From contig PGXY01000004.1 in the NCBI GenBank assembly GCA_002839375.1, forward strand, positions 277,817 to 341,816: DNA of 64,000 nt, in the 5' to 3' direction. The notes below the pieces were generated by a model. That model saw only the letters and a program-made list of their open reading frames with translations, had not been told where the DNA came from and made no database searches. The stretch's first letter is position 1; each line of letters starts with the position of its first letter. The position numbers and the translations under genes are program-made. Below are positions 4,441 through 35,211 of the stretch, piece by piece. The stretch comes from Spirochaetae bacterium HGW-Spirochaetae-1. Its GTDB lineage: Bacteria > Spirochaetota > UBA4802 > UBA5550.

Positions 4441-4510
4441 TCACCGCTTTGTTTTTTCCATAATGCATGTTTACAGAAAGGACGAGAAGAGCGCGAAGGC
4501 AAAAGCCCGG

Positions 4511-6559: not shown

Positions 6560-6703
6560 TAAATTTTTCCTTTATTAATTGTTTTAGAATATTTTTCTAT
6601 ATTCTTGCCGCATAATAAGTTTTTGCAAATTCAAATCTAACGCTAAAGGTCACGAGGCCTGAAGCGCCAGCGCAAGGCTCCCGTGCACCTGTTTGTTCGG
6701 CTC

Positions 6704-9013: not shown

Positions 9014-9319
9014 GTGTTTTCTTCCCGGAAAAATGATTTTTTAGGCACCTCCATATAATGATGTATGGAGGCGCCCTTATTGAAGTAGTATGAAGTGTAT
9101 TGAAAAAAGTAAAGAAATAAAACGATGCTGAAATCAGTAACCTCATGATTGACGGTGAAGAATCAGCTGAATTTGCCGGATAGAAAAATTGATTGACCTG
9201 ATGGGAATAATGACAATATGAGTATGGATTATGACGTGAGGATATATACTCGGAAACACGGCATTTCCCGGGAAAACCGGGAATTCCATACCTAAATACC
9301 CTTTGCAGAATGAGTAACA

Positions 9320-13203: not shown

Positions 13204-13205
13204 CT

Positions 13206-13535
13206 ATGAATAAATTATCAATGGCAATAGCAATCTGTTTATTAATGGCCGGTTCACTTGTACCGCGGGTAAACCAGGTAACCGATGGAAAAATATCAGC
13301 ATCAGCGCCGCAGTATTCCCTGGTGTATGCCGGTGAAAAGGATCTCCGGATTGCCGGTGATTCTTACAAGAAGGACGGCGGGAATGACATGAAGAAGAAC
13401 GACGATCGCGGCGGAGACGGCGTTCTCTACCGGGTTATGGCTATTGTCCTTGTTATATGGATGGGGCTTGCCCTGTATCTTTTCCGCATGGACCGGAAAA
13501 TTGTAAAACTGGAGAAGGACCTCAATGAACGTTAA
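13206..13535 (+). CDS. ccmD: CcmD-like small membrane protein
   Basis: It has a C-terminal TM helix plus basic tail (VLYRVMAIVLVIWMGLALYLFRMDRK) positioned between ccmC and ccmE. At 109 aa it is longer than the canonical CcmD. Confidence 0.55.
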   Translation: MNKLSMAIAICLLMAGSLVPRVNQVTDGKISASAPQYSLVYAGEKDLRIAGDSYKKDGGNDMKKNDDRGGDGVLYRVMAIVLVIWMGLALYLFRMDRKIVKLEKDLNER

Positions 13536-13917
13536 GCGTATTGTTATTTTTCTCGCTGCCGTCGCCCTGCTTATCACCGGTATCGTGGTTCTCAGCGACG
13601 ACATCATGTCTCCCTACGTGCCCTTTGACGAGGCGAAAAAGAAGGCCGGGACGTATGTACAGATCATCGGCTCTCTTGATAAGGCTGTTCCCGTGGTGCA
13701 TGGAGAAGGGAAGTACATGTTTACTATGGTCGACAAAGAGAATGGAAGCATGAGAGTCGTCCATGGTGACGTAAAACCCCTCAATTTTGAGCATGCCGAA
13801 CAAATAGTCGTACTGGGCAGGTTCAGTACTGCGGGAAATATCTTTGAAGCGGACAAGATCCTGGTAAAATGTCCGTCCAAATACAACAAAGATCCGAAAC
13901 AGTCCGTCAACGAATAA
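13525..13917 (+). CDS. ccmE: Heme chaperone CcmE, variant CxxxY type
   Basis: It has an N-terminal membrane anchor and an OB-fold-like body. The C-terminal ILVKCPSKYN aligns with the canonical LAKHDENY, with His replaced by Cys. Confidence 0.8.
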   Translation: MNVKRIVIFLAAVALLITGIVVLSDDIMSPYVPFDEAKKKAGTYVQIIGSLDKAVPVVHGEGKYMFTMVDKENGSMRVVHGDVKPLNFEHAEQIVVLGRFSTAGNIFEADKILVKCPSKYNKDPKQSVNE

Positions 13918-13938
13918 TATATCATGAGGTAGGAACCG

Positions 13939-19918: not shown

Positions 19919-21154
19919 ATGAAAATGATAACGCGATTTTCTCTCTATGGGTTTCTGAAGAATCTTGATTTTTCCGAACCATTCCTGATCCTCTTTTATC
20001 TTTCCATCGGATTGAACTTTTTCCAGATCGGCGTGCTGGTTTCATTTCTGAATATCTGCATTAATATCATGGAAGTTCCCAGCGGAGCTCTGGCCGATAT
20101 TTATGGAAGAAAAAACTGCATGATACTGTCCCTGACGAGCTATATTTTCTCCTTTGCTATTTTTGCTTTTTCCGAATCGTATATTCCTCTTTTCCCGGCC
20201 GTATTCTTTTTCTCAATCGGCGAGGCTTTCCGGACGGGCACGCACAAGGCAATGATTTTCGACTGGCTCAGGAAGAATGACCGCCTTGGTGAAAAAACCA
20301 AAGTTTATGGTTTTACGCGTTCGTGGTCTAAGTATGGGAGCGCCATATCGGTTGTTATAGCGACCATAATCATTATCTTTTCAAAGAGCTACCGCTGGAT
20401 TTTTATTTTTTCAATAATACCTTACATTGCCGGTGTCTGGAACATAGCCTGTTATCCCGACTACCTCAATAAAAAGCTCTCCGACAGGATCAGTATCAAA
20501 CTCATTTTTACACATACTTTTGAGAGCTTAAGAACGGTTTTTGCCAGCAGTAATCTCCGGAAACTCATAGTGCAGAGCATGGGATTTGAGGGTGTCTTTG
20601 AGGTTACAAAGGATTACCTCCAGCCGATCCTGAAGGCCCAGGCTGTGGTGCTTGCCGCCTTTCTCATGCTGCCCGAGAAGGAGAGTACTGCCGTTACCGT
20701 GGGAATAATATATTTTATTCTCCATATAATCTCGGCAAACGCGTCGCTACGTTCTCATATCTTTGCCGCAAGGTTCAGGTCAGAGCAAACAGCCATTATC
20801 GCAATGATCTTCTTTGGATTTGCCCTTGCTTTTGTATCTTCGGCAGGTCTTTATCTGAAGTTATATGCTGTGGCCATTATCGCATACATTGCTTATTATG
20901 TCATACAGAATCTGTGGCGGCCCATACTGGTTGCACAATACGATGATTATGCCGAAAGCAGCCAGCAGGCATCCATCCTTTCCATTGAATCGCAGACCAA
21001 GACCGTGGGCATTACGATAATTGCTCCCGTGGCCGGTTTTATGGCGGACCGGTGGGGTATCGAGTCATCGCTGATGCTTCTCGCCATCCTGCTTCTTATA
21101 CTCTGGGTTTATTCCGTGGCAGGGAGGAAAGAGAAGACCCCGGCCTCGTTATAA
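19919..21154 (+). CDS. MFS transporter
   Basis: It has about 12 predicted TM helices, with the MFS-like motif GALADIYGRKN after TM2. Confidence 0.75.
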   Translation: MKMITRFSLYGFLKNLDFSEPFLILFYLSIGLNFFQIGVLVSFLNICINIMEVPSGALADIYGRKNCMILSLTSYIFSFAIFAFSESYIPLFPAVFFFSIGEAFRTGTHKAMIFDWLRKNDRLGEKTKVYGFTRSWSKYGSAISVVIATIIIIFSKSYRWIFIFSIIPYIAGVWNIACYPDYLNKKLSDRISIKLIFTHTFESLRTVFASSNLRKLIVQSMGFEGVFEVTKDYLQPILKAQAVVLAAFLMLPEKESTAVTVGIIYFILHIISANASLRSHIFAARFRSEQTAIIAMIFFGFALAFVSSAGLYLKLYAVAIIAYIAYYVIQNLWRPILVAQYDDYAESSQQASILSIESQTKTVGITIIAPVAGFMADRWGIESSLMLLAILLLILWVYSVAGRKEKTPASL

Positions 21155-21215: not shown

Positions 21216-21944
21216 TTACGCCTTGTTGAAAAGAGCCTGTGCCGCTTCAACAAACTTCCGGAACTCGGCCCTTTCAAATTTTGAAGAATCATCCAGGCTG
21301 TGGCTGTTCCGGTATTCAATGAGCATTTTTATCTTCTTCATAAGGTCAGGATTGGTGGCGCCGATGAGCGAAGCCACTTCCCTGGCCCGGGTCATGAGGT
21401 TTTCTGCAGGCACCACTTCCGTGACCAGTCCCCACTCGAGAGCCCTGCGGGCATCGATATATTGGCAGGTGAGGGACATGAACTTGGCCCGCTGCTGCCC
21501 GATTTTCTGCTGCAGCAGCTGCGTCATGCCCCAGCCGGGATGAATTCCCACCTTTGCGTGGGTATCACCGAACTTGGCATTTTCCGACGCGATGAGAATG
21601 TCGCAGTTCAGGGCCAGTTCGAATCCGCCTGTCACCGCTGCTCCGTTAACCGCACCGATGATGGGCTTGTCGCAGGCTCCCATGATGTCGGGCAGCTCCT
21701 TGCCGTCACCGCGCGGATTAAAGAGATTCTCCTTACCGATGACCTGGAGATCGATCCCCGAGCAGAATGATTTGCCGTTACCGGTAATAATGGCGGCTCT
21801 TATGCCCGGTGTCTGGTCGACCTTTTCAATTGCGTCATAGAGCTGGGCCAGGAGCAGCTGCGTAAATGAATTATGCCGCTCCGGCCTGTTCAGCGTTATG
21901 ATTGCGATGTTTCCTTCTTCCTGGTATAATACGGGATTTTCCAT
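21216..21944 (-). CDS. Enoyl-CoA hydratase/isomerase family protein (crotonase)
   Basis: The N-terminus reads MENPVLYQEEGNIAIITLNRPERHNSF, the crotonase-fold N-terminus. The start is reassigned to ATG 21944 with an AGGAGG RBS; the longer ORF-track start at 22013 is unlikely. Confidence 0.85.
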   Translation of the reverse strand: MENPVLYQEEGNIAIITLNRPERHNSFTQLLLAQLYDAIEKVDQTPGIRAAIITGNGKSFCSGIDLQVIGKENLFNPRGDGKELPDIMGACDKPIIGAVNGAAVTGGFELALNCDILIASENAKFGDTHAKVGIHPGWGMTQLLQQKIGQQRAKFMSLTCQYIDARRALEWGLVTEVVPAENLMTRAREVASLIGATNPDLMKKIKMLIEYRNSHSLDDSSKFERAEFRKFVEAAQALFNKA

Positions 21945-22178: not shown

Positions 22179-22769
22179 ATGCCAAGAGAACTGAGAAACA
22201 TAGCCCAAGGGAAAACACACCATTGCTTTTCACGCTGCCTGAGGATGATGGACCTTATGAAAAGCAGCCATGTTCGACGATATTTTATTGAAGCAATTAA
22301 AATGGCCCAGGAAAAATATACATTTGAACTAGTCGCAGCAGAGCCCGTGGGAAATCATATTCATCTCATCCTCCGCACACTGGAAGATGAAGAAACCGTA
22401 TCACGGATCATGCAATACATTAAATCACGCATTGCAGAAAAATATAACAGGGCCACGGGGAATAAAGGCCCTTTCTGGAATGAGCGGTTTGGGTCTTCTG
22501 TAATTGAGGAATCAGACAATCCTGAACAGTACCTGTTATGGCTTTTATGGTATATTGGTTACAATCCCGTTCGAAAAGGCCTGGCTCGAGATCCCCGGCA
22601 GACTACTATAAGTTTTATCAATGTATATCTTGATGAAAAATATGAGGCACCGGTTAAGATTACACGACATGTATTTTTCACCCGGTTGGGTGAGACTTTT
22701 GAACAGTGTGTGAAGGCCTTTCTGCTTTACGAAGAAGCCTATCTCAAAAGGCTGGCAATTTATTTTTGA
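22179..22769 (+). mobile_element. REP-associated tyrosine transposase (RAYT / TnpA_REP, IS200-like Y1 HUH transposase family)
   Basis: It has a HUH motif HIHLIL, a catalytic-Tyr region YIGYNPVRKGL, and is flanked by REP-like repeats. Confidence 0.75.
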
Positions 22770-22836: not shown

Positions 22837-23595
22837 TCACGCCAGGAAGCCGCCGTCACAGACAATGAGGCTTCCCGTTGTGAAGGAGGCCGCATCGGAA
22901 ACGAGATACAGCACGGCCCCGGCCATTTCATCGGGTTCGGCATGGCGTCCCATGGGTATCTGTTTTACCACGTAATCATAGATGGCGTCGTTGCCCATGA
23001 GCGCTTTGGAAAACTTGGTGTCCGTGAGTCCGGGCAGAAGGGCGTTGACCCGTATTTTTAACGGGGCCAGTTCCTTGGCAAAGGCCTTGGTCATGGCGAT
23101 AAGCGAAGCCTTGGTGATGGAATAGACTCCCTGGAAGGGGGCCGGCTTGATGCCGTTAACCGACGATACATTCACGACCGATCCGGAGCCGCTCTGCTTC
23201 ATGAGGGGGATGGCCTTCTGTATCATGAAGAAGGGACCCTTGAGATTGACATCGAAGGTCTTGTCCCATATGGCTTCATCGACGCCGTTCATGTCGCCGA
23301 AATAGGGATTGGTCGCGGCGTTGTTGACGAGGATATCAAGGCGGCCGTATTTCGCTTCGATGTCCTTATAGAGTTTTTCGATCTGCACATTCTCTCCCAC
23401 ATGACAGGCCATGGGTACGGCTTTGCCTCCTTCGCTGATTATGGAGTCGGCAACCTGCTGAAGAGACTCTATCTTTCTGCTCACCAGTATGACTTCCGCG
23501 CCGTAGGCGGCCAGGGTCCTGGCGATGGATTCTCCTATGCCCCGGCTTGCGCCCGTGACTAAAGCTACCTTACCGTCAAGTTTGAAATTGATCAT
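22837..23595 (-). CDS. SDR-family oxidoreductase (3-oxoacyl/3-hydroxyacyl reductase-like)
   Basis: N-terminus KVALVTGASRGIGESIA with the TGxxxGxG motif. 252 aa. Confidence 0.85.
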   Translation of the reverse strand: MINFKLDGKVALVTGASRGIGESIARTLAAYGAEVILVSRKIESLQQVADSIISEGGKAVPMACHVGENVQIEKLYKDIEAKYGRLDILVNNAATNPYFGDMNGVDEAIWDKTFDVNLKGPFFMIQKAIPLMKQSGSGSVVNVSSVNGIKPAPFQGVYSITKASLIAMTKAFAKELAPLKIRVNALLPGLTDTKFSKALMGNDAIYDYVVKQIPMGRHAEPDEMAGAVLYLVSDAASFTTGSLIVCDGGFLA

Positions 23596-25562
23596 TATTT
23601 TTCTCCTGCAATGTTTTTTTCAATATTGATTCCAGCCCACGCACCTTCATGGATGGCCTCGAGAAAGCGCCGGGGTGATATGGAGTCGCCCACGTCAGCT
23701 GTGGGAATTCCCAGCTTTTTCAGATCTTCCGACAGGCCCTTCCGGGATTTTGCGCCCAGGGCGTTGATGACCGTTACGGCCTCGATACTTTTTTCTGTAC
23801 CGTCCTGCTTTTTGATTCTGACCAGGTTTTTCTCAATAGAAATGATTTCTGTTCCCAGCTCAAGCAGGGATCCGCTTTTATACAGGCGACGATGAAGCCA
23901 GTAGCCGTGGGCCGTGATGGCATTGACGGGCGGGAAAGGGGCCTTTTCAATGACCGTCACTTTCATTCCCCGCTGAATCAGGAAATCGGCCGTTTCCATG
24001 CCCACATACCCGGCCCCAAGGATGACCACGGGATCAGTGGTGACGGACTTGATTCCCGTGAGCACATCCCGTGCATCTATGACGATTGCGGTATCAATTC
24101 CCGGAATGGGAGGAACCAGTGGAGCGGCGCCCGTGGCGCAGATGACCAGATCGGGCTTTTCCTTTGCTGCCTCATCGGGGGTCAGAGCCGTGTTATATTC
24201 CGGCGTTATCCCCTTTGCAGCGAGTCGACGCAGTGCCCAGGCGAGCCACTGGCGGAGCCCTTCTTTATGGGGAGGCATACTGGCCGAGATGAGCTGGCCC
24301 CCGGGCTCTGTCCCGCTTTCAAAGATGCGGACCCCGTGGCCCTTTTCAGCGGCATACATGGCGGCCGACAAACCTGCCGGTCCGGCACCGGCAATCCACA
24401 CGGTACGTGGTTTTTCGGCCGGACCGAGATCCATGCGGTATTCCTCGCCGCATTCGGGATTGAATACACACGTGGCTGATTTGAATTCGAACATGAGGCG
24501 CTCAATGCATCCCTGGTTGCAGGCTATGCAGAAGCGGATGTCATCATAGTTGCCGGCCTTGGCCTTGTTCAGGAAATCGGGGTCCGTGAGATGCTGCCGG
24601 CCGAAGCTGATGAGATCAGCGTCACCCCTGGACAAGGCATCTTCGGCCAGACGCGGGTCGTGAATCCTTCCCACGCCGATAACCGGCACGGACACCACTT
24701 CCTTTATGGCCCGGGCCCGGAACAGGTTGAAGCCCGGCTCCACATCCATGGATGCAATGGTGAGGTTGCCCGGTGTTGAGTAGACACCAAGGGACACATG
24801 GATGGCGTCCGCCCCGGCCTCCACCAGTTTCGGCGCAAGCCAGCGGGAGAATTCCAGGTCATGACCGCCTTTCACAGCCTCGTCCGATGATATGCGTATG
24901 ATGATGGGAAAATCCGGTCCCACGGCTTTTCTTGTTTTTTCAAGGATCTCCAGGGCGAAGCGGGCCCGGTTTTCCGGACTGCCGCCATATTGGTCCGTGC
25001 GGTGATTGGAGAAGGGCGACAGGAACTGGCAGACCAGGTAGCCATGGGCGCCGTGAATCTCCACGGCGTCGAAACCGGCGTTTTTTGCCCGAAGAGCGGC
25101 GTCGGCGAAGGCCTGCGTCACTTTGTTTATGCGTTCTATGGTCATCTCTTCGCAGGGCTGGCGGAGGATGATGCTGGGCAGGGGAGACGGTGCTTCCGGT
25201 TTTGCTCCCACAATCCCTTCAGCGGTTTCACGCCCGGCATGATGGAGCTGGGCCGCTATAAGCGCTCCCTTACGGTGAACCGCTTCCGTAAGCCGTGTGA
25301 GCCCGGGGATAAAAGAGTCGTCCCATATGCCCACTTCGGCAGGAAATCCCTTTCCCCGGCGGTCCACGGCGAAAACCTCGGTTATGATGAGGCCCACGCC
25401 TCCGGCAGCCCGTCGTTCGAGATAGGTGATGAGCCGGTCACTCACGGTGCTGTCCGTATTGCCGTAACCCGTTCCCATGGCGGGCATGACGGCCCGGTTC
25501 TTCAGGGTCATGCCGTTTATACTGATTGGTGAAAATAATTTATCCAGATTTTTTGTCATCAT
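23595..25562 (-). CDS. 2,4-dienoyl-CoA reductase-like flavoenzyme (OYE-type FMN domain + FAD/NAD(P)-binding domain)
   Basis: The N-terminal Old Yellow Enzyme-like region reads NRAVMPAMGTGY...ITE. The C-terminus has a Rossmann GAGPAGL motif. 655 aa. Confidence 0.8.
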   Translation of the reverse strand: MMTKNLDKLFSPISINGMTLKNRAVMPAMGTGYGNTDSTVSDRLITYLERRAAGGVGLIITEVFAVDRRGKGFPAEVGIWDDSFIPGLTRLTEAVHRKGALIAAQLHHAGRETAEGIVGAKPEAPSPLPSIILRQPCEEMTIERINKVTQAFADAALRAKNAGFDAVEIHGAHGYLVCQFLSPFSNHRTDQYGGSPENRARFALEILEKTRKAVGPDFPIIIRISSDEAVKGGHDLEFSRWLAPKLVEAGADAIHVSLGVYSTPGNLTIASMDVEPGFNLFRARAIKEVVSVPVIGVGRIHDPRLAEDALSRGDADLISFGRQHLTDPDFLNKAKAGNYDDIRFCIACNQGCIERLMFEFKSATCVFNPECGEEYRMDLGPAEKPRTVWIAGAGPAGLSAAMYAAEKGHGVRIFESGTEPGGQLISASMPPHKEGLRQWLAWALRRLAAKGITPEYNTALTPDEAAKEKPDLVICATGAAPLVPPIPGIDTAIVIDARDVLTGIKSVTTDPVVILGAGYVGMETADFLIQRGMKVTVIEKAPFPPVNAITAHGYWLHRRLYKSGSLLELGTEIISIEKNLVRIKKQDGTEKSIEAVTVINALGAKSRKGLSEDLKKLGIPTADVGDSISPRRFLEAIHEGAWAGINIEKNIAGEK

Positions 25563-25578
25563 ATAATCCTTTATGATA

Positions 25579-26487
25579 TTATTTTTGTCCCATGAGAAAA
25601 TCCGGCCTTAGAAAGGCGGGATCGGGATAGGTGTAGAATCCCCGACCTGTTTTGCTTCCCAGGTGTCCCTGGTCCACATAGCCTTTGAGAAAGGCGGCAT
25701 TTCTTTTTCCCTGGTTATTATTGGTAACATTGGCCCAGTAATCGGTGATTTTATACACGGTGTCGATACCGATCTGGTCCATGAGCGCAAAGGGGCCCAG
25801 TGGCGAGCGCATGACGCCGACGAAAGAGCGGTCGATGTCCTCAATGGAGGCAACATCGCGCGCAGCCAGGGTCAGAGCCGAGGCCAGGAGCATCATGAAC
25901 ATGGCGTTGAAGACATAGCCATTGTTTTCCTTGTGCATGACGATGGGTATCTGTTTTATGGACAGGGAAAAATCATAGAGCAGGTCCACGATCTCTTTCG
26001 CTGTTCCCGGGTGGGGCATGATATCGACTACTGGGGCCATCTGGGCGTCATGAAAATGCAGGGCGGCGAATCTTTCGGGCCTGCCCGTGGCTGCGGCGAA
26101 CTGTGACGGGAGCAGTGAAGAGGTGTTCGTGGTGAAGATGGTGTGGACAGGACATATTGCATTGAACTGCCCAAATACTTTGCCTTTCAAATCAGGATCT
26201 TCGGGTATGGATTCACTGACCAGGTCGGCATCACTCCCGGCCTTTTCCGCCGAGGAGGTTGCTGTTATGCGCGCCATGACTGCGGGAACATCATCTTCTT
26301 TCAGCTGGTTTCCACGGACAAGACGCCTGGCGATTTTCTGAATGCGCAGCATGGCCTTTTCCAGCAGTTCATCTTTTATGTCGTAGAGAACCACGTTATA
26401 CCCGTTCAGGGCGCACTGAAGGCCGATCTGCTGGCCCATGGTGCCGCTGCCGATTATCAGCACTTTTTTAATATCATTGACATTCAT
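25579..26487 (-). CDS. 3-hydroxyacyl-CoA dehydrogenase (3-hydroxybutyryl-CoA dehydrogenase-like)
   Basis: N-terminus VLIIGSGTMGQQIGLQCALNGYNVVLYD with the NAD-binding fold. 302 aa. Confidence 0.85.
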   Translation of the reverse strand: MNVNDIKKVLIIGSGTMGQQIGLQCALNGYNVVLYDIKDELLEKAMLRIQKIARRLVRGNQLKEDDVPAVMARITATSSAEKAGSDADLVSESIPEDPDLKGKVFGQFNAICPVHTIFTTNTSSLLPSQFAAATGRPERFAALHFHDAQMAPVVDIMPHPGTAKEIVDLLYDFSLSIKQIPIVMHKENNGYVFNAMFMMLLASALTLAARDVASIEDIDRSFVGVMRSPLGPFALMDQIGIDTVYKITDYWANVTNNNQGKRNAAFLKGYVDQGHLGSKTGRGFYTYPDPAFLRPDFLMGQK

Positions 26488-26506
26488 GACTTTACTCCTT
26501 TAACCT

Positions 26507-27574
26507 TTACAGGTCCGATTTTTCTGTAATAGAAAGGGCGAAGCCCTCAAGTATTTTCACGGCATGAATGAGCATGGCAAAGCGCTTATCCTTTGTCTGG
26601 CCGTGGAAATATCGATAATATATCTGCTGCGCGATGACTGCCAGCCGGAACAGGCCGAAACAGAGATAATAATCGAAGTTGTCTATTTTTCTGCCGGTGA
26701 TATCACCGTAGAGATCGACCTGTTCGTTTCTCGTCAGCATGCCTTCGAGATTCGTGGGCATCATCCTGATCATCTGGACAACCTTCGGGTCGTTCATTTC
26801 AACCCAGTAGGCCAGGCTGTTTCCCAGGTCCATGAGGGGATCACCGATGGTGGCCATCTCCCAGTCAAGGATGCCCGTTATTTCCAGTGGATTGTCGGGA
26901 TTCAGCACGGCATTATCGAGCTTATAGTCGTTATGGATGATGGTGGGTCGGTCCGTGTCGGGAGGCATTTTGACATGGAGCCATTCCATGACCTTTTCAT
27001 AATCGGGTGCGTCTTCGGTGCGGGCATCGCGGTATCGCTTACTCCAGCCCTCGACCTGTCGCTGCACATAACCTTCCGGTTTTCCGAAATCATCAAGCCC
27101 GACTGCCTTATAATCGATGCTGTGGAGTTCACAGAGCACCTTCACCAGGTTTTCACTCAGGGTCCGGGCTTCGTCGGGCGGCAGGATCATCCCCTCGGGA
27201 AGATCTTTTCTGAAAATGATACCCTTCAGGCGCTCCATGACATAGAAAGGAACATCCATAACCGCCGGGTCTTCGCAGTAGGCCAGCGCCTCGGGACAAT
27301 ATCTGAAGTGCGGCTTCAGTGTTTTCAGGATGCGGTACTCACGCAGCATATCATGGGCGCTCTTGGCCTTTTTCCCGAAGGGGGGCCTGCGCAGCACCAG
27401 TTCGCGGTCTCCGAACTTCACCAGGTAGGTGAGATTGGAAAAGCCGCTGGGAAACTGGCTGATTTCTATCTGCCCCTGGAGACCGCTGAGGGTATCCCGG
27501 AGATATGCCTCTACCTTTGAGGCGTCCAGCTCTTCACCCTGCCGGACATTGATGGCTTTATCGATGGCGCTCAT
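26507..27574 (-). CDS. Phosphotransferase (APH/choline-kinase-like) family protein, acyl-CoA dehydrogenase-associated (LvaA / ACAD10-N-terminal-like)
   Basis: It has a kinase-like fold with a Brenner motif region (IIHNDYKLDNAVL), and sits in a beta-oxidation operon next to an ACAD gene. Confidence 0.7.
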   Translation of the reverse strand: MSAIDKAINVRQGEELDASKVEAYLRDTLSGLQGQIEISQFPSGFSNLTYLVKFGDRELVLRRPPFGKKAKSAHDMLREYRILKTLKPHFRYCPEALAYCEDPAVMDVPFYVMERLKGIIFRKDLPEGMILPPDEARTLSENLVKVLCELHSIDYKAVGLDDFGKPEGYVQRQVEGWSKRYRDARTEDAPDYEKVMEWLHVKMPPDTDRPTIIHNDYKLDNAVLNPDNPLEITGILDWEMATIGDPLMDLGNSLAYWVEMNDPKVVQMIRMMPTNLEGMLTRNEQVDLYGDITGRKIDNFDYYLCFGLFRLAVIAQQIYYRYFHGQTKDKRFAMLIHAVKILEGFALSITEKSDL

Positions 27575-28257
27575 GTCTGCCTCCTTAAATACGTTTCAAT
27601 AAAGCTGATTAAATAATCAGCGTACTCGTCGACGGATATGTTTCTCCGCTTGTATTTCCATCGCTTGAGATACCAGTCCTGCATCATGGCCTTGATGACC
27701 GATGCCGTGAGACGGGTATCGATATCGGTAAAGATATCCTGGTCGATACCCTCTTTGAGAATATCAATAATCATGCCTTCCGTGAGAAGTTCGCTATCAA
27801 TGGAGAAGGTTCTTGATTCTTTGCTGAAATTCTTTGTTTCCATGAAAAGAAAATAGAACCAGTACTGCATTGCTTCACTCAGATAGAGATGGGTCTTCAC
27901 CATGGCATGGAGCTTTTCCCGGACAGTTCCGCATTTTTCCAGTTCGTCCCGGAGAATTCTCTTCATGGTGAGCTGCCCGTGTTTCTGAATGAGCAGGAGC
28001 AGCTCGTCCTTGCTGGCGAAATAGGAATAGAGGGCCCCCATGCTGAGACCGGAATCGGCGCTGAGATCACGGAGACTCATGGCGTTAAAACCTTTCTCAT
28101 TGCTCAGTTTCAGTGTACTGTTCACAATAATAGAAAGGTTTTTAACGGCAACGGCCTCTTTTTTAATTTTGATCCGTTCACGGTTCTGGTTAAAATACTC
28201 GCGGCAGATGTCCTCAACCGCGGTAGCATAATCGGCAATAAAAGTTTTAAAGGTCAT
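27571..28257 (-). CDS. TetR/AcrR family transcriptional regulator
   Basis: It has an N-terminal TetR-type HTH (MSLRDLSADSGLSMGALYSYFASKDELL). Confidence 0.8.
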   Translation of the reverse strand: MTFKTFIADYATAVEDICREYFNQNRERIKIKKEAVAVKNLSIIVNSTLKLSNEKGFNAMSLRDLSADSGLSMGALYSYFASKDELLLLIQKHGQLTMKRILRDELEKCGTVREKLHAMVKTHLYLSEAMQYWFYFLFMETKNFSKESRTFSIDSELLTEGMIIDILKEGIDQDIFTDIDTRLTASVIKAMMQDWYLKRWKYKRRNISVDEYADYLISFIETYLRRQT

Positions 28258-28275
28258 GGTCTGGCAATCCTCGTC

Positions 28276-29481
28276 CTACTTACCGTTTCTCCCGTATCTG
28301 TTCAGATAGCGACGGGCGAAGGAGGCCTTGTGTACCTCGTCGGCGCCGTCATAGATTCGGGCGGCCCTTTCATGCCGGTAGAAGAATGCCAGGATAGTGT
28401 CATCGGTCATTCCCAGTCCGCCGTGAACCTGGAGCGCCCGGTCGATGACATGCTGCATGGTGTTGGCCACGACAAATTTTATCAGGCTCACCTCGTCACG
28501 GGCTTCCTTTGCCCCCACGGTATCAATCTTCCATGCCGCGTGCAGGGTCATGAGCCGCGCGGCCTGGATTTCCGCGGCGGAGTCGGCCACCCACTGCTGT
28601 ATGATCTGCCGTGTGGCCAGGGTCTTGCCGTCGGGAGATATTTTTCTCTCGGAGGCGCGCTGACACATGAGATCCATGGAACGCTTGCAGATACCGAGCC
28701 AGCGCATGCAGTGATGGATGCGTCCCGGCCCCAGGCGGTCCTGGGCAATAACGAAGCCCTGGCCCTCGGCGCCCAGGAGGTTTTTCTGCGGTACACGGCA
28801 GGACTGGTACAGAATCTCGCCGTGGCTGGCATAATCGTCACCGCTATGACCCATGACGGGAATATTTCTCACCAGGTTAAATCCCGGCGTGTTCGTGGGG
28901 ACGATGATCATGCTGGCTTGGAGATACATGGGAGCCTCGGGGTTTGTCACGGCCATGACAATGGCAAATTCCGATCCGTCGGCGGCCGTGGTGTACCATT
29001 TATGGCCGTTGATGATGTAATCGTCGCCGTCTTTTACAGCTGTTGTTTCCAGCATGACGGGATTGGAGCCCGGCATGTCCACTTCGGTCATGGAGAAACA
29101 GCTGCGTATATCGCCGCCGGCCAGGGGCTTCAGGTATTGTTTCTTCTGCTCCTCCGTGCCGTGGGTGTGAAGAATTTCAATGTTTCCGGCGTCGGGAGCC
29201 TGGCAGCCGAAGACGTAGTGCCCCAGTGGTGTCCGGCCCAGGGATTCGGAGACGAGGCCGTGATCGACCAGGTTAAGCCCCATGCCCCCCAGTTCTTTCG
29301 GGATCTGAGGGCCCCACAGTTCCATCTGTTTCACCATTTTTCTTTTTTCCTTCAGGACGGGAACCATCTCACTGAAATTGTGAGTGATGAATTCCGGCTC
29401 CAGGGGAATCAGTTCCTTATCGACGAATTCATCGATCATTCCCAGAATGGTCTGCATTTTGTCGCTAATCGTAAAATCCAT
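28276..29481 (-). CDS. Acyl-CoA dehydrogenase family protein
   Basis: 401 aa with the ACAD N-, middle- and C-domain pattern; the catalytic Glu region reads ...IYDGADEVHK. Confidence 0.85.
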   Translation of the reverse strand: MDFTISDKMQTILGMIDEFVDKELIPLEPEFITHNFSEMVPVLKEKRKMVKQMELWGPQIPKELGGMGLNLVDHGLVSESLGRTPLGHYVFGCQAPDAGNIEILHTHGTEEQKKQYLKPLAGGDIRSCFSMTEVDMPGSNPVMLETTAVKDGDDYIINGHKWYTTAADGSEFAIVMAVTNPEAPMYLQASMIIVPTNTPGFNLVRNIPVMGHSGDDYASHGEILYQSCRVPQKNLLGAEGQGFVIAQDRLGPGRIHHCMRWLGICKRSMDLMCQRASERKISPDGKTLATRQIIQQWVADSAAEIQAARLMTLHAAWKIDTVGAKEARDEVSLIKFVVANTMQHVIDRALQVHGGLGMTDDTILAFFYRHERAARIYDGADEVHKASFARRYLNRYGRNGK

Positions 29482-29517
29482 GACGGCCTCCTTAATTTTT
29501 CATTGTTCGGTACTGCT

Positions 29518-30225
29518 TTATCTGTATGTTATGAGTTCCCTGTCTCCCGTCAGTTCAAGATGACACACATCATTGAAACTCATGAGAGAAAAGCGGTCCT
29601 CGGTGCATTTGAACCGGCTGACCGATGTATTGATGATCTGCCATGTGAGTCTCATGGACTCTTCATCGGAAATATGCAGAGCCATCATCACTGCCGCGGC
29701 AATTGGACCGCCCGAGGTGAAAACGGCGATATTTTTCCCCCGGCCGAAATGCTTCATAATTTCATTGATCCCGCTGTGAACGGCATCACGGAAACTCCGG
29801 TAAGGAAGAAGTTCCCCGGGGTGGTTCCCGGAAATCCAGCGCAGCATGGATAGCTCGAAAATTTTCTGAAAGGATGTTCTGCTGGTAAATAGACGGTCCA
29901 CATCATACTTCAGCGATGGGTCCTCGGTCAGGAGGAGGGGCACCAGGGTGGTGAGAACAGCTCTTGAATCATATTCATTGAAGGCATCGTTGAGATACAT
30001 GCGCGGAGCGTTCATACCCTTTTCACCACTGAGGCGCAGGATTTCACTGGCTGTTCCAATCTGTCTCTCCAGGGTCCCCGTATAGATAACGTCAAAGGCA
30101 ACTCCCGTATGCATGAAATGCTGTCCCAGCAGGGATGCCTGCATGATGCCCCGTTCGCTGAGACGGTCATAATTCTCTTTCCCGAAGGAGGCCTGCCCGT
30201 GCCGTATGAAGTACAGTGTACTCAT
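29518..30225 (-). CDS. Histidine phosphatase (phosphoglycerate mutase) family protein
   Basis: The N-terminal RHG catalytic motif reads LYFIRHGQASF. Confidence 0.8.
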   Translation of the reverse strand: MSTLYFIRHGQASFGKENYDRLSERGIMQASLLGQHFMHTGVAFDVIYTGTLERQIGTASEILRLSGEKGMNAPRMYLNDAFNEYDSRAVLTTLVPLLLTEDPSLKYDVDRLFTSRTSFQKIFELSMLRWISGNHPGELLPYRSFRDAVHSGINEIMKHFGRGKNIAVFTSGGPIAAAVMMALHISDEESMRLTWQIINTSVSRFKCTEDRFSLMSFNDVCHLELTGDRELITYR

Positions 30226-30397
30226 AAGTAATTTTTTCCTCTATTTTGAACACATTGTCTAATATATACATGTTTAGGGCAGGTGAATATGCTTGTCAAG
30301 AAAAAATATAGCGAGCGTTCGTTTTTTTTCTTGCAATATTTCCAATCCCTTCTATATTTTGCTCACAGACGCAAGAAAAAAAAAGCGAGGTTTTTCA

Positions 30398-32548
30398 ATG
30401 ACACGATCCTTCCTGCATACATTAATGAATCCCAAATCCATTGCCACGGCAGGGGCCGGCAATAATGTTATGAAAATGGGGACCATGCATCTCCTGAGTA
30501 TTCTGAAAGACGGTTATAGCGGGAAGGTCTATCCGATACATCCCAATGATGAGATTGTGCTGGGTCAGAAAGCGTATAAATCACCGCTTGACCTGCCGGA
30601 AGCGCCGGAACTGGTCCTGTTTATCCTGCCCTCGAATCAGCTTCTGCCGGTTTTTGAGGATTTTGGGAAAAGGGGCACTAAATATGCCATCGTTATAACG
30701 GCAGGTTTCAGGGAAACGGGTTCCGAGGGCCGGGTACTGGAAAAAAAGCTTGTTGATATTGCCGACAAATACGGCATGCGTTTCATAGGGCCTAACTGCA
30801 TGGGGATTATCAACACTGAAATATCCCTCAATACCACGGTTGTTCCTCTTCAGTCGCCGCCGGGTCTCCTGGGATTTGCTTCCCAGAGTGGTACCTATGT
30901 GACGCAGTCCCTTCCCTATCTCGCGAAAAAGGGCATCCGTTTCAGTAAGGCCATCAGTGTGGGGAATCAGGCCAATGTGAATATCATAGATGCCCTGGAA
31001 TATCTCGGTGAAGATGAGCAGACCAGGGCTATATCGCTGTACATCGAGGCCTTGAGCGATGTGGACCGCTTTCTTGAAACGGCCCGGAGAATAACACAGC
31101 TTAAACCGGTCCTTGCTCAGTACATCGGCGGATCCGAGGCCGGGGCAAGATCGGGCTTAAGTCACACCGGAGCCATGGCGGGGCCCGATCATCTCTACGA
31201 CGGGTTATTCAGGCAAGCGGGAATAATCCGTGTTCATTCCATTGAGGATCTCTACGGCTTCGGATGGGCCCTGGCGACGCAGCCTCCACTCAGAGGAAAC
31301 CGTATCGGCATAGTTACCAATTCGGGCGGACCGGGTTCGGCCGTGGCCAATACCTGTGAGACAGCAGGCTTCAGCATACCTGCTTTCAGTGAGAACCTGC
31401 AGGAGCAGATCAAGCCTCTCATGCCGGCTCATGCCCCGGCGGGAAATCCAGTTGATCTTACCTTTGCCATGGATATAAATATTCTAGCCCATACTATACC
31501 GGAACTGGTCATGAAAAGCGGCGAGGTGGATGGTGTTGTTCTCCATGGGGCCATGTCCTCGGGGTTCATGAAGGTATTGTCGAAGAATCTCAAAACGGTT
31601 CTCGGCGACAAACCCGTCAATGATGTGGTAAAACTTTCGGAGAGCCGGGATCTCTCGGAGAATATGCAGCTTCCATTTAAATACGGCATTCCTTTGATAG
31701 TATCGTCGTTTTTTGACCGTGATGACCATTATACCGACTGTTTTATGGAAAATAATATTCCCGTCTACGAAGCACCTGAAAGGGCGGCTCTGGCCATGGG
31801 GATGCTTTTGAAGTATAAAAAAATCCGGGAGCGGAAGACGGGAAACGGCACTACCGCAGGGAATCCCTCCAGCGAAGCCCTGGAAATTATAAGGAAGGCT
31901 GTGAGCCAGAATCGGGTCGCCCTTGATGAATATGAGGCCAAGCGTCTTCTTACCTCCTACGGGATTCCCGTTTCCCGGGAGTTTCTGGCCGCCGGGGAAA
32001 AGGAACTGGCGGAAATCGGGGGAAAACTCAGCTTCCCCGTGGCCGTTAAGGTCTGTCATCATGAGATCATGCACAAGACCGAGCGGGGACTGGTCCATCT
32101 GGGAATAAAGGACAGCACAGGCATGATAGAGGCTTTCAGGAAGATACGGGCCGAGGCCGGTGAGGATGTTCCCGTCCTTGTGAGCGAGATGGTTCCGGGC
32201 AAGAGGGAGTTCCTGGCCGGTATACTGCGGGAGAAGAATTTCGGCACCTGGACCGCTTTTGGCGTGGGCGGTATTTTTACCGAGGCCCTGAAAGACGCGG
32301 TGTACCGCCTTTCTCCGCTTTCAGTCGAGGAGGCCCGGGAGATGATCGGCGATATCAGGCTCTCATCCCTCCTGGGTGATTTCAGGAAAATGGGTCCGGT
32401 TAATATTGATTCTCTGGCGGCAGTCCTGCAGCGCCTCAGTATGATACCGCTCATTCATCCCGAGATTCGGGAGATCGATATCAATCCCTTAATTATCTGC
32501 GGCAGCGAACCCGTGGTGGTCGATTCGCTCATCGTCCTGGGGAACTGA
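30398..32548 (+). CDS. Acyl-CoA synthetase (NDP/ADP-forming), fused alpha/beta domains
   Basis: It has a CoA-binding domain, a succinyl-CoA-synthetase-like ligase domain and a C-terminal ATP-grasp. I chose the start at ATG 30398, with a GCGAGG RBS, rather than the ORF-track 30293. Confidence 0.8.
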   Translation: MTRSFLHTLMNPKSIATAGAGNNVMKMGTMHLLSILKDGYSGKVYPIHPNDEIVLGQKAYKSPLDLPEAPELVLFILPSNQLLPVFEDFGKRGTKYAIVITAGFRETGSEGRVLEKKLVDIADKYGMRFIGPNCMGIINTEISLNTTVVPLQSPPGLLGFASQSGTYVTQSLPYLAKKGIRFSKAISVGNQANVNIIDALEYLGEDEQTRAISLYIEALSDVDRFLETARRITQLKPVLAQYIGGSEAGARSGLSHTGAMAGPDHLYDGLFRQAGIIRVHSIEDLYGFGWALATQPPLRGNRIGIVTNSGGPGSAVANTCETAGFSIPAFSENLQEQIKPLMPAHAPAGNPVDLTFAMDINILAHTIPELVMKSGEVDGVVLHGAMSSGFMKVLSKNLKTVLGDKPVNDVVKLSESRDLSENMQLPFKYGIPLIVSSFFDRDDHYTDCFMENNIPVYEAPERAALAMGMLLKYKKIRERKTGNGTTAGNPSSEALEIIRKAVSQNRVALDEYEAKRLLTSYGIPVSREFLAAGEKELAEIGGKLSFPVAVKVCHHEIMHKTERGLVHLGIKDSTGMIEAFRKIRAEAGEDVPVLVSEMVPGKREFLAGILREKNFGTWTAFGVGGIFTEALKDAVYRLSPLSVEEAREMIGDIRLSSLLGDFRKMGPVNIDSLAAVLQRLSMIPLIHPEIREIDINPLIICGSEPVVVDSLIVLGN

Positions 32549-33321
32549 TGAAGATACTGGTGTGCATAAAACAGGTCCGCGATGACACATCGCCGATTAT
32601 GATCGGTTCGGAAGGAAAGGATTACCTGGACGACGGGAACACGGTTTTCAGGATGAACCGGCTCGATGAATACGCCCTGGAAGAGGCAATCCTTATCCGT
32701 GAGAAAAATAAGGGAATCGTGGTTGATGCCGTATCCGTGGGACCGGACAGGGCCAGGGCCGTTGTCCGGAAAGCCCTGGAAAAGGGTGCCGATAATGGCT
32801 TTCATATTGTAACAGGGGAAGCTGCATATGCCCCTCCCCTAGTCACGGCTGCACTCCTGGCGTCCTTTGCACGGTCTGGGGATTACGATCTTATTCTTAC
32901 GGGCGTCATGTCCGAGGACGATATGAACGGCCAGACCGGTTCAATGCTGGCCGGATTCCTGGGGCTGCCCTGCGCGGTTTCGGTTATAGAGGAAGAGATC
33001 AACGGAAACGCCTTTATTGATGTTACTTCAGAACTGGAGGGCGGTATGCGGGAGCAGGCCGTCATATCCATGCCCTGCGTGCTCACCATCCAGTCAGGAA
33101 TAAACCGGCCCCGGTACCCGTCCCTCTCCAATGTCCTGCGGGCAAAAACCCAGGAAATTATTACCAGGGACGGAACAGAGCAGGCTGAGCAGGACGGGGG
33201 AATGGCACAGGTCACACTCTCCTATCCGGTAAAAACGGGCCGCGGAATTATCCTGGACGGTACGCCCGAAGAAAAGGCGATTCAACTCCTGGATATTCTT
33301 CATGAGAAGGCCCTGGTATAG
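32548..33321 (+). CDS. etfB: Electron transfer flavoprotein beta subunit
   Basis: It begins MKILVCIKQVRD, the EtfB N-terminus. Confidence 0.85.
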   Translation: MKILVCIKQVRDDTSPIMIGSEGKDYLDDGNTVFRMNRLDEYALEEAILIREKNKGIVVDAVSVGPDRARAVVRKALEKGADNGFHIVTGEAAYAPPLVTAALLASFARSGDYDLILTGVMSEDDMNGQTGSMLAGFLGLPCAVSVIEEEINGNAFIDVTSELEGGMREQAVISMPCVLTIQSGINRPRYPSLSNVLRAKTQEIITRDGTEQAEQDGGMAQVTLSYPVKTGRGIILDGTPEEKAIQLLDILHEKALV

Positions 33322-33326: not shown

Positions 33327-34331
33327 ATGGAAATGGACGGAAAAAGTACTATCAGATATCTCCTGGTCATCGAGACCCTGGAAGGAAAGATAAACCGCGA
33401 GAGCCTGGAGACCCTGGGCTTCGCTCTTTCCTTTCACAATACGATCGATAACTGCGTCCTGGTCATTGCCGGCGAGGGAATTACGCAAACAGCCGGATCC
33501 CTGGCAGCGGCCTGGGGACTCGATGTCGTTGTATTCGATGACCCGGCATTCCGCTATCCCAACGGAGACCTGCTGGCCGCGGCACTCGTTGAGACCATAA
33601 AGAAATATAATGCCGGGAGCGTTGTTCTGCTCCATACGATTACCGGTGTCCATGCCGCTTCACGGGCAGCCGCTACGGCGGGCATGGCCTGTATAACTGC
33701 CGTGGAATCAGTGACCCGGGAAGGAGAATCGACGGTATTTCAGCGGTGCCTGCAGTACGGGAAAATCAGGGCATCGATAATGCTTCAAAGTGATAGGTGT
33801 ATCCTGACCATACTTGCCGGTTCATTTACAGCTCCTGAGCCGGGAGATTTTCGAAAAACGCCGGGGACTGTCTATGATGATAAAATCGGGCGCAGTGCGT
33901 CTTATTCACCCCGGAGTATTGAACGGGCCGAGAGCAGCCGGTCCCTGGATGAGGCGGAAGTCATCGTGTCCGCGGGCAGGGGAATCGGAAAAGAAGAAAA
34001 CCTGGAGATGATCCGTGACGTGGCGAAGATATTTTCCCGGTCTGCCGTGGGTTCGTCGCGTCCCCTCTGCGACCTGGGTTGGCTTCCCTACGGGCAACAG
34101 GTGGGCTCGACGGGAAAAACCGTATCGCCGAAGCTGTATCTGGCCTGCGGTATCTCAGGAGCCAGTCAGCACCTGGCCGGCATGAAGAGCTCGCAGATCA
34201 TTGTGGCCGTGAACCGTGACCCTAATGCCGCAATATTTTCCTTAGCGGATTACGGCGTGGTGGAGGATTTGACGGTTTTTCTCCCCCTCCTGGCGGAGAA
34301 GTACCGGGACGGAAAGTGGTTGAAGAAGTAA
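33327..34331 (+). CDS. etfA: Electron transfer flavoprotein alpha subunit
   Basis: It has the C-terminal FAD-binding motif LYLACGISGASQHLAGMKSSQIIVAVNRDPNAAIF. Confidence 0.85.
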   Translation: MEMDGKSTIRYLLVIETLEGKINRESLETLGFALSFHNTIDNCVLVIAGEGITQTAGSLAAAWGLDVVVFDDPAFRYPNGDLLAAALVETIKKYNAGSVVLLHTITGVHAASRAAATAGMACITAVESVTREGESTVFQRCLQYGKIRASIMLQSDRCILTILAGSFTAPEPGDFRKTPGTVYDDKIGRSASYSPRSIERAESSRSLDEAEVIVSAGRGIGKEENLEMIRDVAKIFSRSAVGSSRPLCDLGWLPYGQQVGSTGKTVSPKLYLACGISGASQHLAGMKSSQIIVAVNRDPNAAIFSLADYGVVEDLTVFLPLLAEKYRDGKWLKK

Positions 34332-34395: not shown

Positions 34396-35211
34396 ATGAA
34401 ATCAATGGAGGAAAAAACAGCCGTGATTACCGGCGCGGCATCGGGAATCGGCAGAGCCCTGGCCGTACAGCTTGCGGCTGAAGGATGTGCCCTGGCCATA
34501 GCCGATGTGAACGATAAGGGCCTGAAAGAGACTGCCGACCTGGTGAAGGGTGCCGGTGTAGATGTCATGACGGCTAAGCTCGATGTGTCCGTTGAAAAGG
34601 ATGTGAATAAATTTGCCGCCGCCGTGATGAAGCGCTTCGGCTCCGTGGATATCGTCATCAATAATGCCGGTGTCAATCATAACGGCAACATGATGGACGC
34701 CTCAATTGAGGATTTTGAGTGGATTTTCAGCATTAACTTCTGGGGTGTTGTGTACGGCACAAGGGCCTTCCTGCCCCATCTTGTAAAGCGTTCTGAAGCG
34801 AGCCTCGTCAATATATCCAGTCTCTTTGGTCTGCTGAGTGTTCGGAAGCAATCGGCCTATTGCGCCACAAAGTTTGCTGTCCGGGGTTTTACCGAGGCCC
34901 TGCGCCAGGAGCTGAGAGCCACGGGTGTTGCCGTAACCTGTGTGCATCCCGGAGGGATAAAGACTAATATTGCCCATACGGCCCGCATATCAACGGCAGG
35001 AGGGCGCGGTTCAAAACAGGACCAGGAAAAGCTGATAAAGCTTTTTGACAGGGTGGCAGCCACGAGTCCTGAAGAGGCGGCACGTGTCATTATCGACGGC
35101 ATTAAAAAGAAAAGTACCCGGGTTCTCATAGGGAAAGACGCGAAGCTCGGTTCCCTGGTTCTGCGCCTTTTCCCCGCTATCTATGACAGGGTGTTGGAAA
35201 AGATATTGTAA
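34396..35211 (+). CDS. SDR-family oxidoreductase
   Basis: N-terminus TAVITGAASGIGRALA. Confidence 0.85.
   Translation: MKSMEEKTAVITGAASGIGRALAVQLAAEGCALAIADVNDKGLKETADLVKGAGVDVMTAKLDVSVEKDVNKFAAAVMKRFGSVDIVINNAGVNHNGNMMDASIEDFEWIFSINFWGVVYGTRAFLPHLVKRSEASLVNISSLFGLLSVRKQSAYCATKFAVRGFTEALRQELRATGVAVTCVHPGGIKTNIAHTARISTAGGRGSKQDQEKLIKLFDRVAATSPEEAARVIIDGIKKKSTRVLIGKDAKLGSLVLRLFPAIYDRVLEKIL

Follow-up and report, generated by a model that had tools for sequence, protein, structure and literature searches.

Divergent operons of Spirochaetota and Desulfobacterota encode an unfused ACAD10/11-type kinase and acyl-CoA dehydrogenase with a predicted role in 4-hydroxy acid catabolism

The gene cluster described here is located on contig PGXY01000004.1 (assembly GCA_002839375.1) of Spirochaetae bacterium HGW-Spirochaetae-1, of which a stretch of 64,000 nucleotides (positions 277,817 to 341,816 of the forward strand), henceforth referred to as the window, was analyzed. 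Between positions 22837 and 30225, the minus strand of the window carries seven open reading frames (ORFs), all with strong Pfam matches, that encode, in order of transcription, a histidine-phosphatase-fold protein, an acyl-CoA dehydrogenase (ACAD), a TetR-family regulator, an APH-fold kinase, a 3-hydroxyacyl-CoA dehydrogenase (3HCDH), a FadH-like flavoenzyme and a short-chain dehydrogenase/reductase (SDR). This order had been proposed in an earlier note made from the sequence, and is borne out by the ORF coordinates and by the Pfam and NCBIfam matches. The gaps between consecutive genes are 36, 18, −4, 19, 16 and −1 bp. Because none exceeds 36 bp, we consider the seven genes to form a single operon, in which there is no space for a small gene such as lvaB, whose product is the 12-kDa kinase partner in the Pseudomonas putida lva system (PMC6692424); the earlier note was thus right to report that such a gene is missing. 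Facing the operon on the plus strand are genes encoding an ADP-forming (NDP-forming) acyl-CoA synthetase, the two subunits of an electron transfer flavoprotein (ETF; etfB and etfA) and a second SDR, likewise as described earlier and in agreement with their Pfam matches.

The fourth gene of the minus-strand operon (26507..27574) encodes a kinase of 355 aa (Pfam APH, 8e-53) that, judged by its sequence, is of the ACAD10/11 type. PDB matches below 1e-30 comprise four distinct sequences only, namely 9o56 (334 bits, 47% identity), 3dxp from Cupriavidus (184 bits) and two versions of the kinase domain of mouse ACAD11 (161-165 bits, 31% identity). A closer affinity with aminoglycoside or homoserine kinases, which the earlier note had considered, is not observed: all strong PDB matches are kinases of the ACAD10/11 type, and the NCBIfam models for APH(2'') aminoglycoside kinases and for thiamine kinase reach 22 and 30 bits, respectively. 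The catalytic set is intact (R62, E79, H214-x-D216-x-K218, N221 and D237-W-E239) and aligns with R61, E78, D214, K216, N219, D234 and E236 of the ACAD10-type kinase of Caldalkalibacillus thermarum and with D220 and N225 of the mouse protein. Moreover, R172 aligns with the CoA-contacting R176 of ACAD11, and R78-E79 with the Arg-Glu pair in its helix αC, where the published numbering 'R86' is not exactly reconciled with the chain index. PDB entry 9o56 is most likely the C. thermarum enzyme, since the residue numbers match, although no accession is stated; a literature search on the PDB code returned no relevant paper. This closest solved homologue shares with the window kinase all catalytic residues named for it in a 2026 preprint (Ye et al.). 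The kinase family is very large, with no fewer than 8000 clusters when grouped at 90% identity, and members from Spirochaetota, Bacillota, Myxococcota, Desulfobacterota and Actinomycetota are 65-74% identical. The window kinase is predicted to be a 4-hydroxyacyl-CoA 4-kinase, for which the CoA moiety would be required, because the free acid is left unphosphorylated by ACAD10/11.

The second gene (28276..29481, minus strand) encodes an ACAD of 401 aa with three Pfam ACAD domains (up to 6e-36). Among PDB sequences, its best matches are human and mouse ACAD11 (300.7 and 297 bits, best E 1.3e-88) and the Mycobacterium abscessus protein 4hr3 (288 bits), while the best match to an ordinary ACAD family reaches only 164 bits. 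Identity to the ACAD domain of mouse ACAD11 is 41%, and the segment R249-LGPGRIH-H257-C-M-R260 is the same in both proteins, exactly, over 12 residues. The hallmarks of the ACAD10/11/LvaC clade, in mouse numbering, are the catalytic Asp (D753), the HCMR motif (H634 and R637) and the upstream R626, the latter two forming the phosphate pocket; these signature residues were defined and mutagenised by Rashan et al. (2025, PMC12440821). All have an equivalent in the window ACAD, as R249 corresponds to R626, H257 and R260 to H634 and R637, and D378, in the context R-I-Y-D-G-A-D-E, to D753 in the mouse context L-A-D753-G-P-D-E. The normal catalytic base, another possibility raised earlier, is therefore not what is found: D378 stands in place of Glu and is accompanied by the R249...H257CMR260 helix. 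By these sequence features, the window ACAD is a member of the ACAD10/11/LvaC clade and a predicted 4-phosphoacyl-CoA phosphate eliminase.

The same signature was followed across genomes in 41 loci retrieved with the kinase as seed, to which the phosphatase as seed added 4 further loci. An ACAD is encoded within 1.6 kb of the kinase in 29 of the 41 kinase-seeded loci, and every one of these carries both the R...H(C/A/V)MR motif and the xDG Asp. Among the ACADs encoded at a distance of 6-9 kb, on the other hand, those with only 25-29% identity to the window ACAD have neither, while distal copies in L017 and L018 retain the HCMR helix. This comparison of kinase-adjacent with distal ACADs serves as an internal control and strengthens the assignment of the signature. 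In one long-read metagenome-assembled genome (MAG; L010, approximately 8052-9260), the ACAD orthologue has ARAPHGLCRVQE instead of the conserved C-terminal motif ARIYDGADEVHK, a loss that probably reflects a frameshift through assembly error.

The gene order phosphatase, ACAD, TetR, kinase, with etfBA in divergent orientation, is found again in named genomes of Spirochaetota, of Syntrophaceae, of Desulfosarcina, including the isolate Desulfosarcina widdelii PP31 (L013), and of Desulfosudaceae, and constitutes a conserved module of Spirochaetota and Desulfobacterota. MAGs from these two phyla are the closest named relatives. Near-identical contigs from three other samples (L042-44) have a layout exactly as in the window. 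In all 4 phosphatase-seeded loci, the phosphatase gene directly precedes a gene for a 401-aa ACAD and etfBA is adjacent; TetR and kinase genes are present in 3 and a FadH-like gene in 2 of them. The SDR gene usually follows immediately after the kinase gene in named genomes. Around distant kinases (Arenibacter, Anaerolineae, Ktedonobacteria), only an ACAD and an SDR or crotonase remain nearby.

Several individual loci depart from this arrangement. A Desulfobacterales chromosome (CP070697.1; L046, 6001-9865) carries phosphatase, ACAD and etfAB genes with neither kinase nor TetR gene within 6 kb; given this lack of a nearby kinase, phosphatase, ACAD and ETF seem to be bound more tightly to one another than to the kinase. 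In the operon of a Spirochaetota MAG (L001, 11169-13847), the kinase and 3HCDH genes are separated by genes for an additional, long ACAD (Acyl-CoA_dh_C) and for an Amidohydro_2 protein. As the Amidohydro_2 family includes lactonases, this hints at γ-lactones as a source of 4-hydroxy acids. In a Syntrophaceae MAG (L002, 9228-18033), genes downstream of the kinase encode a GlcD-like FAD oxidase, two CCG/Fe-S proteins, an aldehyde:ferredoxin oxidoreductase and a HAD hydrolase; its cluster, like that of L003, ends with a crotonase homologue (58%). Plasmid pMSMB43 of Burkholderia humptydooensis (L049, 5926-8060) encodes an ACAD with 46% identity to the window ACAD, overlapping a phosphotransferase gene by 4 bp. 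This pair lies directly downstream of two non-ribosomal peptide synthetase genes and upstream of a thioesterase gene, and seems to have been co-opted by a natural-product cluster.

The TetR-family regulator (27571..28257, minus strand; Pfam TetR_N and TetR_C_24) is encoded between ACAD and kinase, an arrangement found in 12 loci, and its gene shares 4 bp with that of the kinase, at the stop of the former and the start of the latter. Its best NCBIfam match is Bacillus-type FadR (4e-11, below cutoff). The 172-bp region between the two divergent operons holds a palindrome of about 45 bp (30294..30339; TGTCAAGAAAAAATATAGCGAGCGTTCGTTTTTTTTCTTGCAATAT), with the core CGAGCGTTCG at 30312-30321. Across loci, the palindrome has the consensus CAAgAAAAAAACGAaCGtTCGcTatATTTTTcTTGACA and is located upstream of the phosphatase gene. 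It occurs once per locus in 10 out of 10 TetR-bearing loci with upstream sequence and is also present in L042-44, while it is absent from every fetched locus without a TetR gene; in the window, the core pattern has a single match versus 0.13 expected. This conservation across phyla, together with the strict co-occurrence with the TetR gene, makes the palindrome a candidate operator. Its arms terminate in outward-facing −35 hexamers, TTGACA toward the phosphatase operon and TTGCAA toward the synthetase gene, and the synthetase promoter TTGCAA-16-TATATT (30331-30358) was picked up independently by a promoter scan. We infer from this arrangement that a single TetR operator could control both divergent operons; TetR would probably bind over both −35 boxes and let go upon binding an acyl-CoA of the pathway. 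A terminator scan gave no excess over shuffled expectation.

The first gene of the minus-strand operon (29518..30225) encodes the histidine-phosphatase-fold protein (235 aa; Pfam His_Phos_1, 6e-17), which is atypical. It retains R8-H9-G10, the second Arg (R54) and the acidic proton donor (E84), whereas the second core His of canonical members (S-H-G / H-G-N) is replaced, with S171-G-G found where these have S-H-G. All 149 diverse representatives, and every syntenic orthologue, have the S171-G-G motif. Over the same representatives, at 33-56% identity, R8, H9, R54, E84, S171, G173 and N199 never vary, and a decaying pseudo-enzyme was rejected on this ground; the constancy of the catalytic residues makes the protein look like a constrained, active one rather than a relic. 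The nucleophile, the second Arg and the acid are thus preserved in a phosphate pocket that has been redesigned. In the PDB, no sequence match exceeds 27 bits. An AlphaFold2 (AF2) model (pLDDT 93) nonetheless has the standard histidine-phosphatase fold, and its best Foldseek match is the phosphoserine phosphatase PspA (TM 0.65, 21% identity). Compared with branch 1 of the histidine phosphatases (PhoE, PspA, CobC, dPGM), the protein shares the fold (TM about 0.65), the RHG nucleophile, the second Arg and the Glu acid, and differs in its invariant Ser for the second core His, its enlarged helical cap (residues ~87-160), an identity of about 20% and its ties to the ACAD/kinase/ETF module. At E 1e-30 or better, the subfamily comprises 1363 clusters at 50% identity, nearly all of about 235 aa; when grouped at 90% identity, it counts 3118 clusters. 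The best 150 of 8305 matches are all stand-alone proteins, with no fusion to a kinase or ACAD among them.

The earlier note had regarded this phosphatase as an unusual extra. The description does not hold for the present clade, in which the protein is a conserved member whose gene immediately precedes that of the ACAD in 14 of the 41 kinase-seeded loci, as it is in all those retrieved with the phosphatase itself. A precedent also exists in Pseudomonas citronellolis LA18T, where a cluster induced by levulinate is devoid of lvaB and contains, between its lvaA and lvaC homologues, a gene of the histidine-phosphatase family; the authors of that study left the function of this gene open (PMC6692424). 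In ACAD10, a non-homologous HAD domain takes the equivalent position, and it has been assigned two roles, restraining the kinase in one study and acting as a lipid phosphatase in another (Ye et al. preprint).

The remaining genes of the two operons add redox and CoA-ester functions. The 3HCDH (25579..26487, minus strand) matches Pfam 3HCDH_N/3HCDH (8e-48) and exceeds the cutoff of NCBIfam NF006143 (356 bits, cutoff 312). The Fe-S flavoenzyme of the FadH type (23595..25562, minus strand; Pfam Oxidored_FMN, 4e-88, and Pyr_redox_2) combines an old yellow enzyme FMN domain with an FAD/NAD(P) domain and carries the [4Fe-4S] Cys motif C345-x2-C348-x3-C352...C365. It matches 2-naphthoyl-CoA reductase (PDB 6qkg, 326 bits) and Escherichia coli FadH (1ps9, 323 bits) about equally well, and is predicted to be an acyl-CoA ene-reductase or 2,4-dienoyl-CoA-reductase-like enzyme; L001, L042-45 and L047 have the gene as well. 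The last gene of the operon encodes a DHRS4-like SDR of 252 aa (22837..23595, minus strand; 5e-67; NCBIfam NF005446, 412 bits, cutoff 373), whose best PDB match is human DHRS4 (191 bits, versus about 155 for FabG). An SDR with 58-69% identity is encoded directly after the kinase in L006-9, L011-13 and L027. By analogy with LvaD, it is a candidate 4-oxoacyl-CoA/4-hydroxyacyl-CoA oxidoreductase. DHRS4 is a peroxisomal carbonyl reductase with an unclear physiological role, and ACAD11 is likewise peroxisomal.

On the plus strand, the ADP-forming acyl-CoA synthetase (30398..32548; 716 aa) has Pfam CoA_binding_2, Succ_CoA_lig and ATP-grasp_5 domains. A TTG start at 30293, inside the palindrome, was discarded as an ORF-finder artefact, as the near-identical contigs (L042) call the ATG at 30398. 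The best NCBIfam match of the synthetase is 4-hydroxybutyrate-CoA ligase, at 421 bits versus a cutoff of 1300, so this identity was rejected and no substrate is called. It is followed by etfB (32548..33321; Pfam ETF), etfA (33327..34331; Pfam ETF and ETF_alpha) and, at the end of the divergent operon, the second SDR (34396..35211; 271 aa; Pfam adh_short, 2e-55), whose position is unchanged in L042-44. A bifurcating ETF is not supported, as the β subunit is nearer to the non-bifurcating ETFs of Methylophilus, Paracoccus and human (103-122 bits in the PDB) than to bifurcating ones (70-77 bits); the α subunit is ambiguous, with 120-142 bits to both types.

We consider it likely that these TetR-controlled divergent operons serve to channel 4-hydroxy acids into β-oxidation via a 4-phosphoacyl-CoA intermediate, with 4-oxo acids as probable further substrates. 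This is suggested by the placement of the kinase among β-oxidation genes (3HCDH, crotonase, acyl-CoA synthetase, ETF and FadH-like), by the retention of the module across phyla and by the strict association of the palindrome with TetR. The ADP-forming synthetase would produce the acyl-CoA, and an SDR, like LvaD, would interconvert its 4-oxo and 4-hydroxy forms. The APH-fold kinase, an assignment that follows its family, would then phosphorylate the 4-hydroxyl group, and the ACAD-fold enzyme would eliminate phosphate to yield 2-enoyl-CoA, using FAD, Asp378 and the Arg/His-Cys-Met-Arg helix, after which crotonase and 3HCDH would continue β-oxidation. In vitro, such chemistry has been shown for bacterial pairs, namely LvaA/LvaC and the Burkholderia pseudomallei orthologues. 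The route as such had been put forward in the earlier note and is supported by the clades and signatures of kinase and ACAD; these do not distinguish levulinate from other 4-hydroxy or 4-oxo acids as substrate.

Three observations weigh against this interpretation. First, according to Ye et al., prokaryotic ACAD10-type kinases, probably including the closest solved homologue of the window kinase, phosphorylate 1-O-alkylglycerol in vitro, stimulated by CoA or acetyl-CoA. Second, the linkage to ETF is not explained by the known mechanism, as the ACAD10/11 reaction is net redox-neutral and regenerates FAD without an acceptor (Rashan et al., PMC12440821). Third, no thiolase is present in the window.

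Our best guess for the conserved accessory proteins is that they deal with off-pathway species, namely that the phosphatase would hydrolyse stranded 4-phospho intermediates, that ETF would re-oxidise enzyme stuck in the FADH2 form and that the FadH-like reductase would clear released dienoyl- or 4-substituted enoyl-CoA. A further reading takes the ACAD not as a self-contained 'rebound' eliminase but as one component of a conserved four-part machine. Such a machine, in which the phosphatase with its redesigned pocket acts on the 4-phospho intermediate, either for proofreading or recycling or as a partner of kinase and ACAD like LvaB or the HAD domain of ACAD10, and in which ETF and sometimes a FadH-type reductase carry electrons to or from the ACAD, is a tentative proposal that we rate as rather improbable. 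If true, it would imply a redox and phosphate bookkeeping around 4-phosphoacyl-CoA that is unseen in mammalian studies.

A related explanation, somewhat less probable still, is that the reaction is a net oxidation. Here, the ACAD would dehydrogenate 4-phosphoacyl-CoA and pass the electrons to ETF, phosphate elimination would give 2,4-dienoyl-CoA and the FadH-like enzyme would reduce this with NAD(P)H, leaving the logic of the pathway unchanged but wiring its redox steps otherwise than in ACAD10/11. Such a scheme would account for the presence of etfBA next to phosphatase and ACAD in essentially every locus of the clade, the kinase-free L046 included, for the resemblance of the β subunit to plain electron-accepting ETFs and for the recurrence in the operon of a CoA-ester ene-reductase of the FadH type with an Fe-S motif. 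Moreover, Paquay et al. propose an oxidation-elimination-reduction sequence in the ACAD domain, which makes a dienoyl-type intermediate chemically plausible. However, all signature residues are identical to those of ACAD10/11, which regenerate FAD acceptor-free, and the FadH-like gene is missing in most of the Desulfobacterota loci that retain ETF. The ETF may also just serve ordinary β-oxidation ACADs encoded elsewhere; the extra long ACAD in the L001 operon is a case in point.

The in vitro data of Ye et al. suggest another function for the kinase, that of a CoA- or acetyl-CoA-stimulated lipid kinase acting on 1-O-alkylglycerol or monoacylglycerol in ether-lipid salvage or remodelling, with the phosphatase as counterpart of the ACAD10 HAD domain. 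The C. thermarum kinase, whose residue numbering matches that of 9o56 (47% identical to the window kinase), is reported to phosphorylate chimyl alcohol, and the lipid phosphatase activity reported for the HAD domain in the same preprint would find a parallel in the phosphatase gene of the present module. How the two kinase activities relate to each other is, by the preprint's own account, unclear. Whereas the C. thermarum enzyme was assayed on 1-O-alkylglycerol with acetyl-CoA, the genomic context of the window kinase points to acyl-CoA. Its gene is translationally coupled into a CoA-thioester operon that includes an ACAD with the phosphate-pocket signature, and an ether-lipid model leaves this ACAD without a role. 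Many Desulfobacterota make alkylglycerol ether lipids, which counts in favor of a lipid substrate, but no HAD, glycerolipid or AGPS-type gene is found among the window ORFs scanned. The CoA dependence of the lipid activity in vitro would, moreover, fit an active site built for acyl-CoA. We therefore regard a lipid kinase as quite unlikely, and retain phosphorylation of 4-hydroxyacyl-CoA as the preferred function.

Least probable of all, and very unlikely, is strict orthology with the Pseudomonas lva operon, with levulinate or 4-hydroxyvalerate as the dedicated substrate: the predicted chemistry is the same, SDR and CoA-ligase genes lie alongside and the P. citronellolis lva-type cluster has a histidine-phosphatase gene replacing lvaB (PMC6692424), yet LvaB is lacking, TetR and an ADP-forming synthetase stand in place of LvaR and LvaE, the kinase is ACAD10-like and the hosts are anaerobic Spirochaetota and Desulfobacterota.

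Placed beside P. putida lvaABCDE, the cluster resembles it in having a kinase and an ACAD-family eliminase acting in succession, with an SDR and a CoA ligase alongside, and it resembles the P. citronellolis LA18T variant in the histidine-phosphatase-family gene and the missing lvaB. The differences are a TetR regulator with a candidate palindromic operator instead of the sigma54-dependent LvaR, an ADP-forming instead of the AMP-forming ligase LvaE, a kinase of the ACAD10-like subtype (LvaA is reported to be just 29% identical to ACAD10/11 kinases), another gene order and the addition of ETF and FadH-like genes. With another regulator, ligase type and kinase subtype, the cluster is most probably not orthologous to the P. 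putida operon. The 41-locus genome scan contained no lva locus, its Pseudomonas members (L034 and L036) having an ACAD gene followed by a kinase gene and only 33-40% identity, and the kinase and ACAD genes found side by side by tblastn of plasmids lie in different contexts, none of which is an lva operon.

The likeness to mammalian ACAD10/11 extends over both catalytic modules, comprising the R...HCMR helix and catalytic Asp of the ACAD (41% identity to mouse ACAD11) as well as the HxDxK, N and DWE motifs, the β3 Arg, the αC Glu and the CoA-contact Arg of the kinase (31% identity). A phosphatase-fold partner is present in both ACAD10 and the cluster, although the folds differ, being HAD in the former and histidine phosphatase in the latter. 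Unlike in the ACAD10/11 fusion, kinase and ACAD are separate here with a TetR gene in between, the operons additionally code for ETF, a FadH-like reductase and an ADP-forming ligase, and the hosts are anaerobic bacteria. The core chemistry of a kinase and an ACAD of the ACAD10/11/LvaAC kind is thus already known. New are the split genes, the embedded TetR with its conserved candidate operator, the atypical histidine phosphatase, the ETF, the ADP-forming ligase and the occurrence in anaerobes; no description of the whole cluster as a variant was found in the literature searched.

Beyond the two operons, an enoyl-CoA hydratase (crotonase) is encoded at 21216..21944 (minus strand; Pfam ECH_1, 7.5e-55; called as 242 aa in L042-44), outside the seven-gene region. 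Between it and the SDR gene, an IS200-like Y1 transposase gene (22179-22769; Pfam Y1_Tnp, 9.5e-09) lies on the opposite, plus strand. As its location is the same in L042-44, the three contigs of other samples that are ~94% related, this is a stable insertion, which may have become domesticated. Transporters of the major facilitator superfamily are encoded at both ends of the regulon (19919-21154 and 36066-37481, both plus strand), are retained in L042-44 and are possible substrate importers. Two islands of low GC content (4001-8000 and 48001-50000; GC 0.35-0.40 versus about 0.50 elsewhere), within which the ORFs 5192-6559, 6704-7327 and 48894-49550 have no Pfam match, may have been horizontally acquired. 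A divergent aldehyde:ferredoxin-oxidoreductase-like protein (46653-48536, plus strand; AFOR_N/AFOR_C at just 65-70 bits) and Ccm cytochrome c maturation genes (11227-16122) suggest an anaerobic host. An Rfam scan of the entire window gave zero matches.

The 4-phosphoacyl-CoA route was assigned to genes in 2017 in bacteria and in 2024-25 in mammals. That the two catalytic modules of ACAD10/11 exist unfused, in a widespread and strongly conserved operon of anaerobes, bears on the mechanism of this route, on the role of the phosphatase-like domain of ACAD10 and on the substrate of the kinase, which the 2026 preprint disputes. The genomic context speaks for CoA thioesters as substrates of the bacterial kinase, and the stand-alone kinase and ACAD proteins are tractable for tests of mechanism. 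The module also offers a concrete lead on the puzzle of a redox-neutral flavoenzyme with an electron-transfer partner, and on the roles of the phosphatase partners. At least two non-homologous kinds of phosphatase partner have been recruited, with the HAD fold in ACAD10 and the histidine-phosphatase fold in the present cluster; histidine-phosphatase-family genes also occur in P. citronellolis and Gordonia clusters. Likewise, the resemblance of the kinase-linked SDR to DHRS4 could be a lead for a missing 4-oxo/4-hydroxyacyl step in animals, and TetR with its candidate operator could serve as a biosensor part. In practical terms, the predicted pathway would constitute an oxygen-insensitive alternative to the radical 4-hydroxybutyryl-CoA dehydratase for γ-hydroxy acids, γ-lactones and levulinate.

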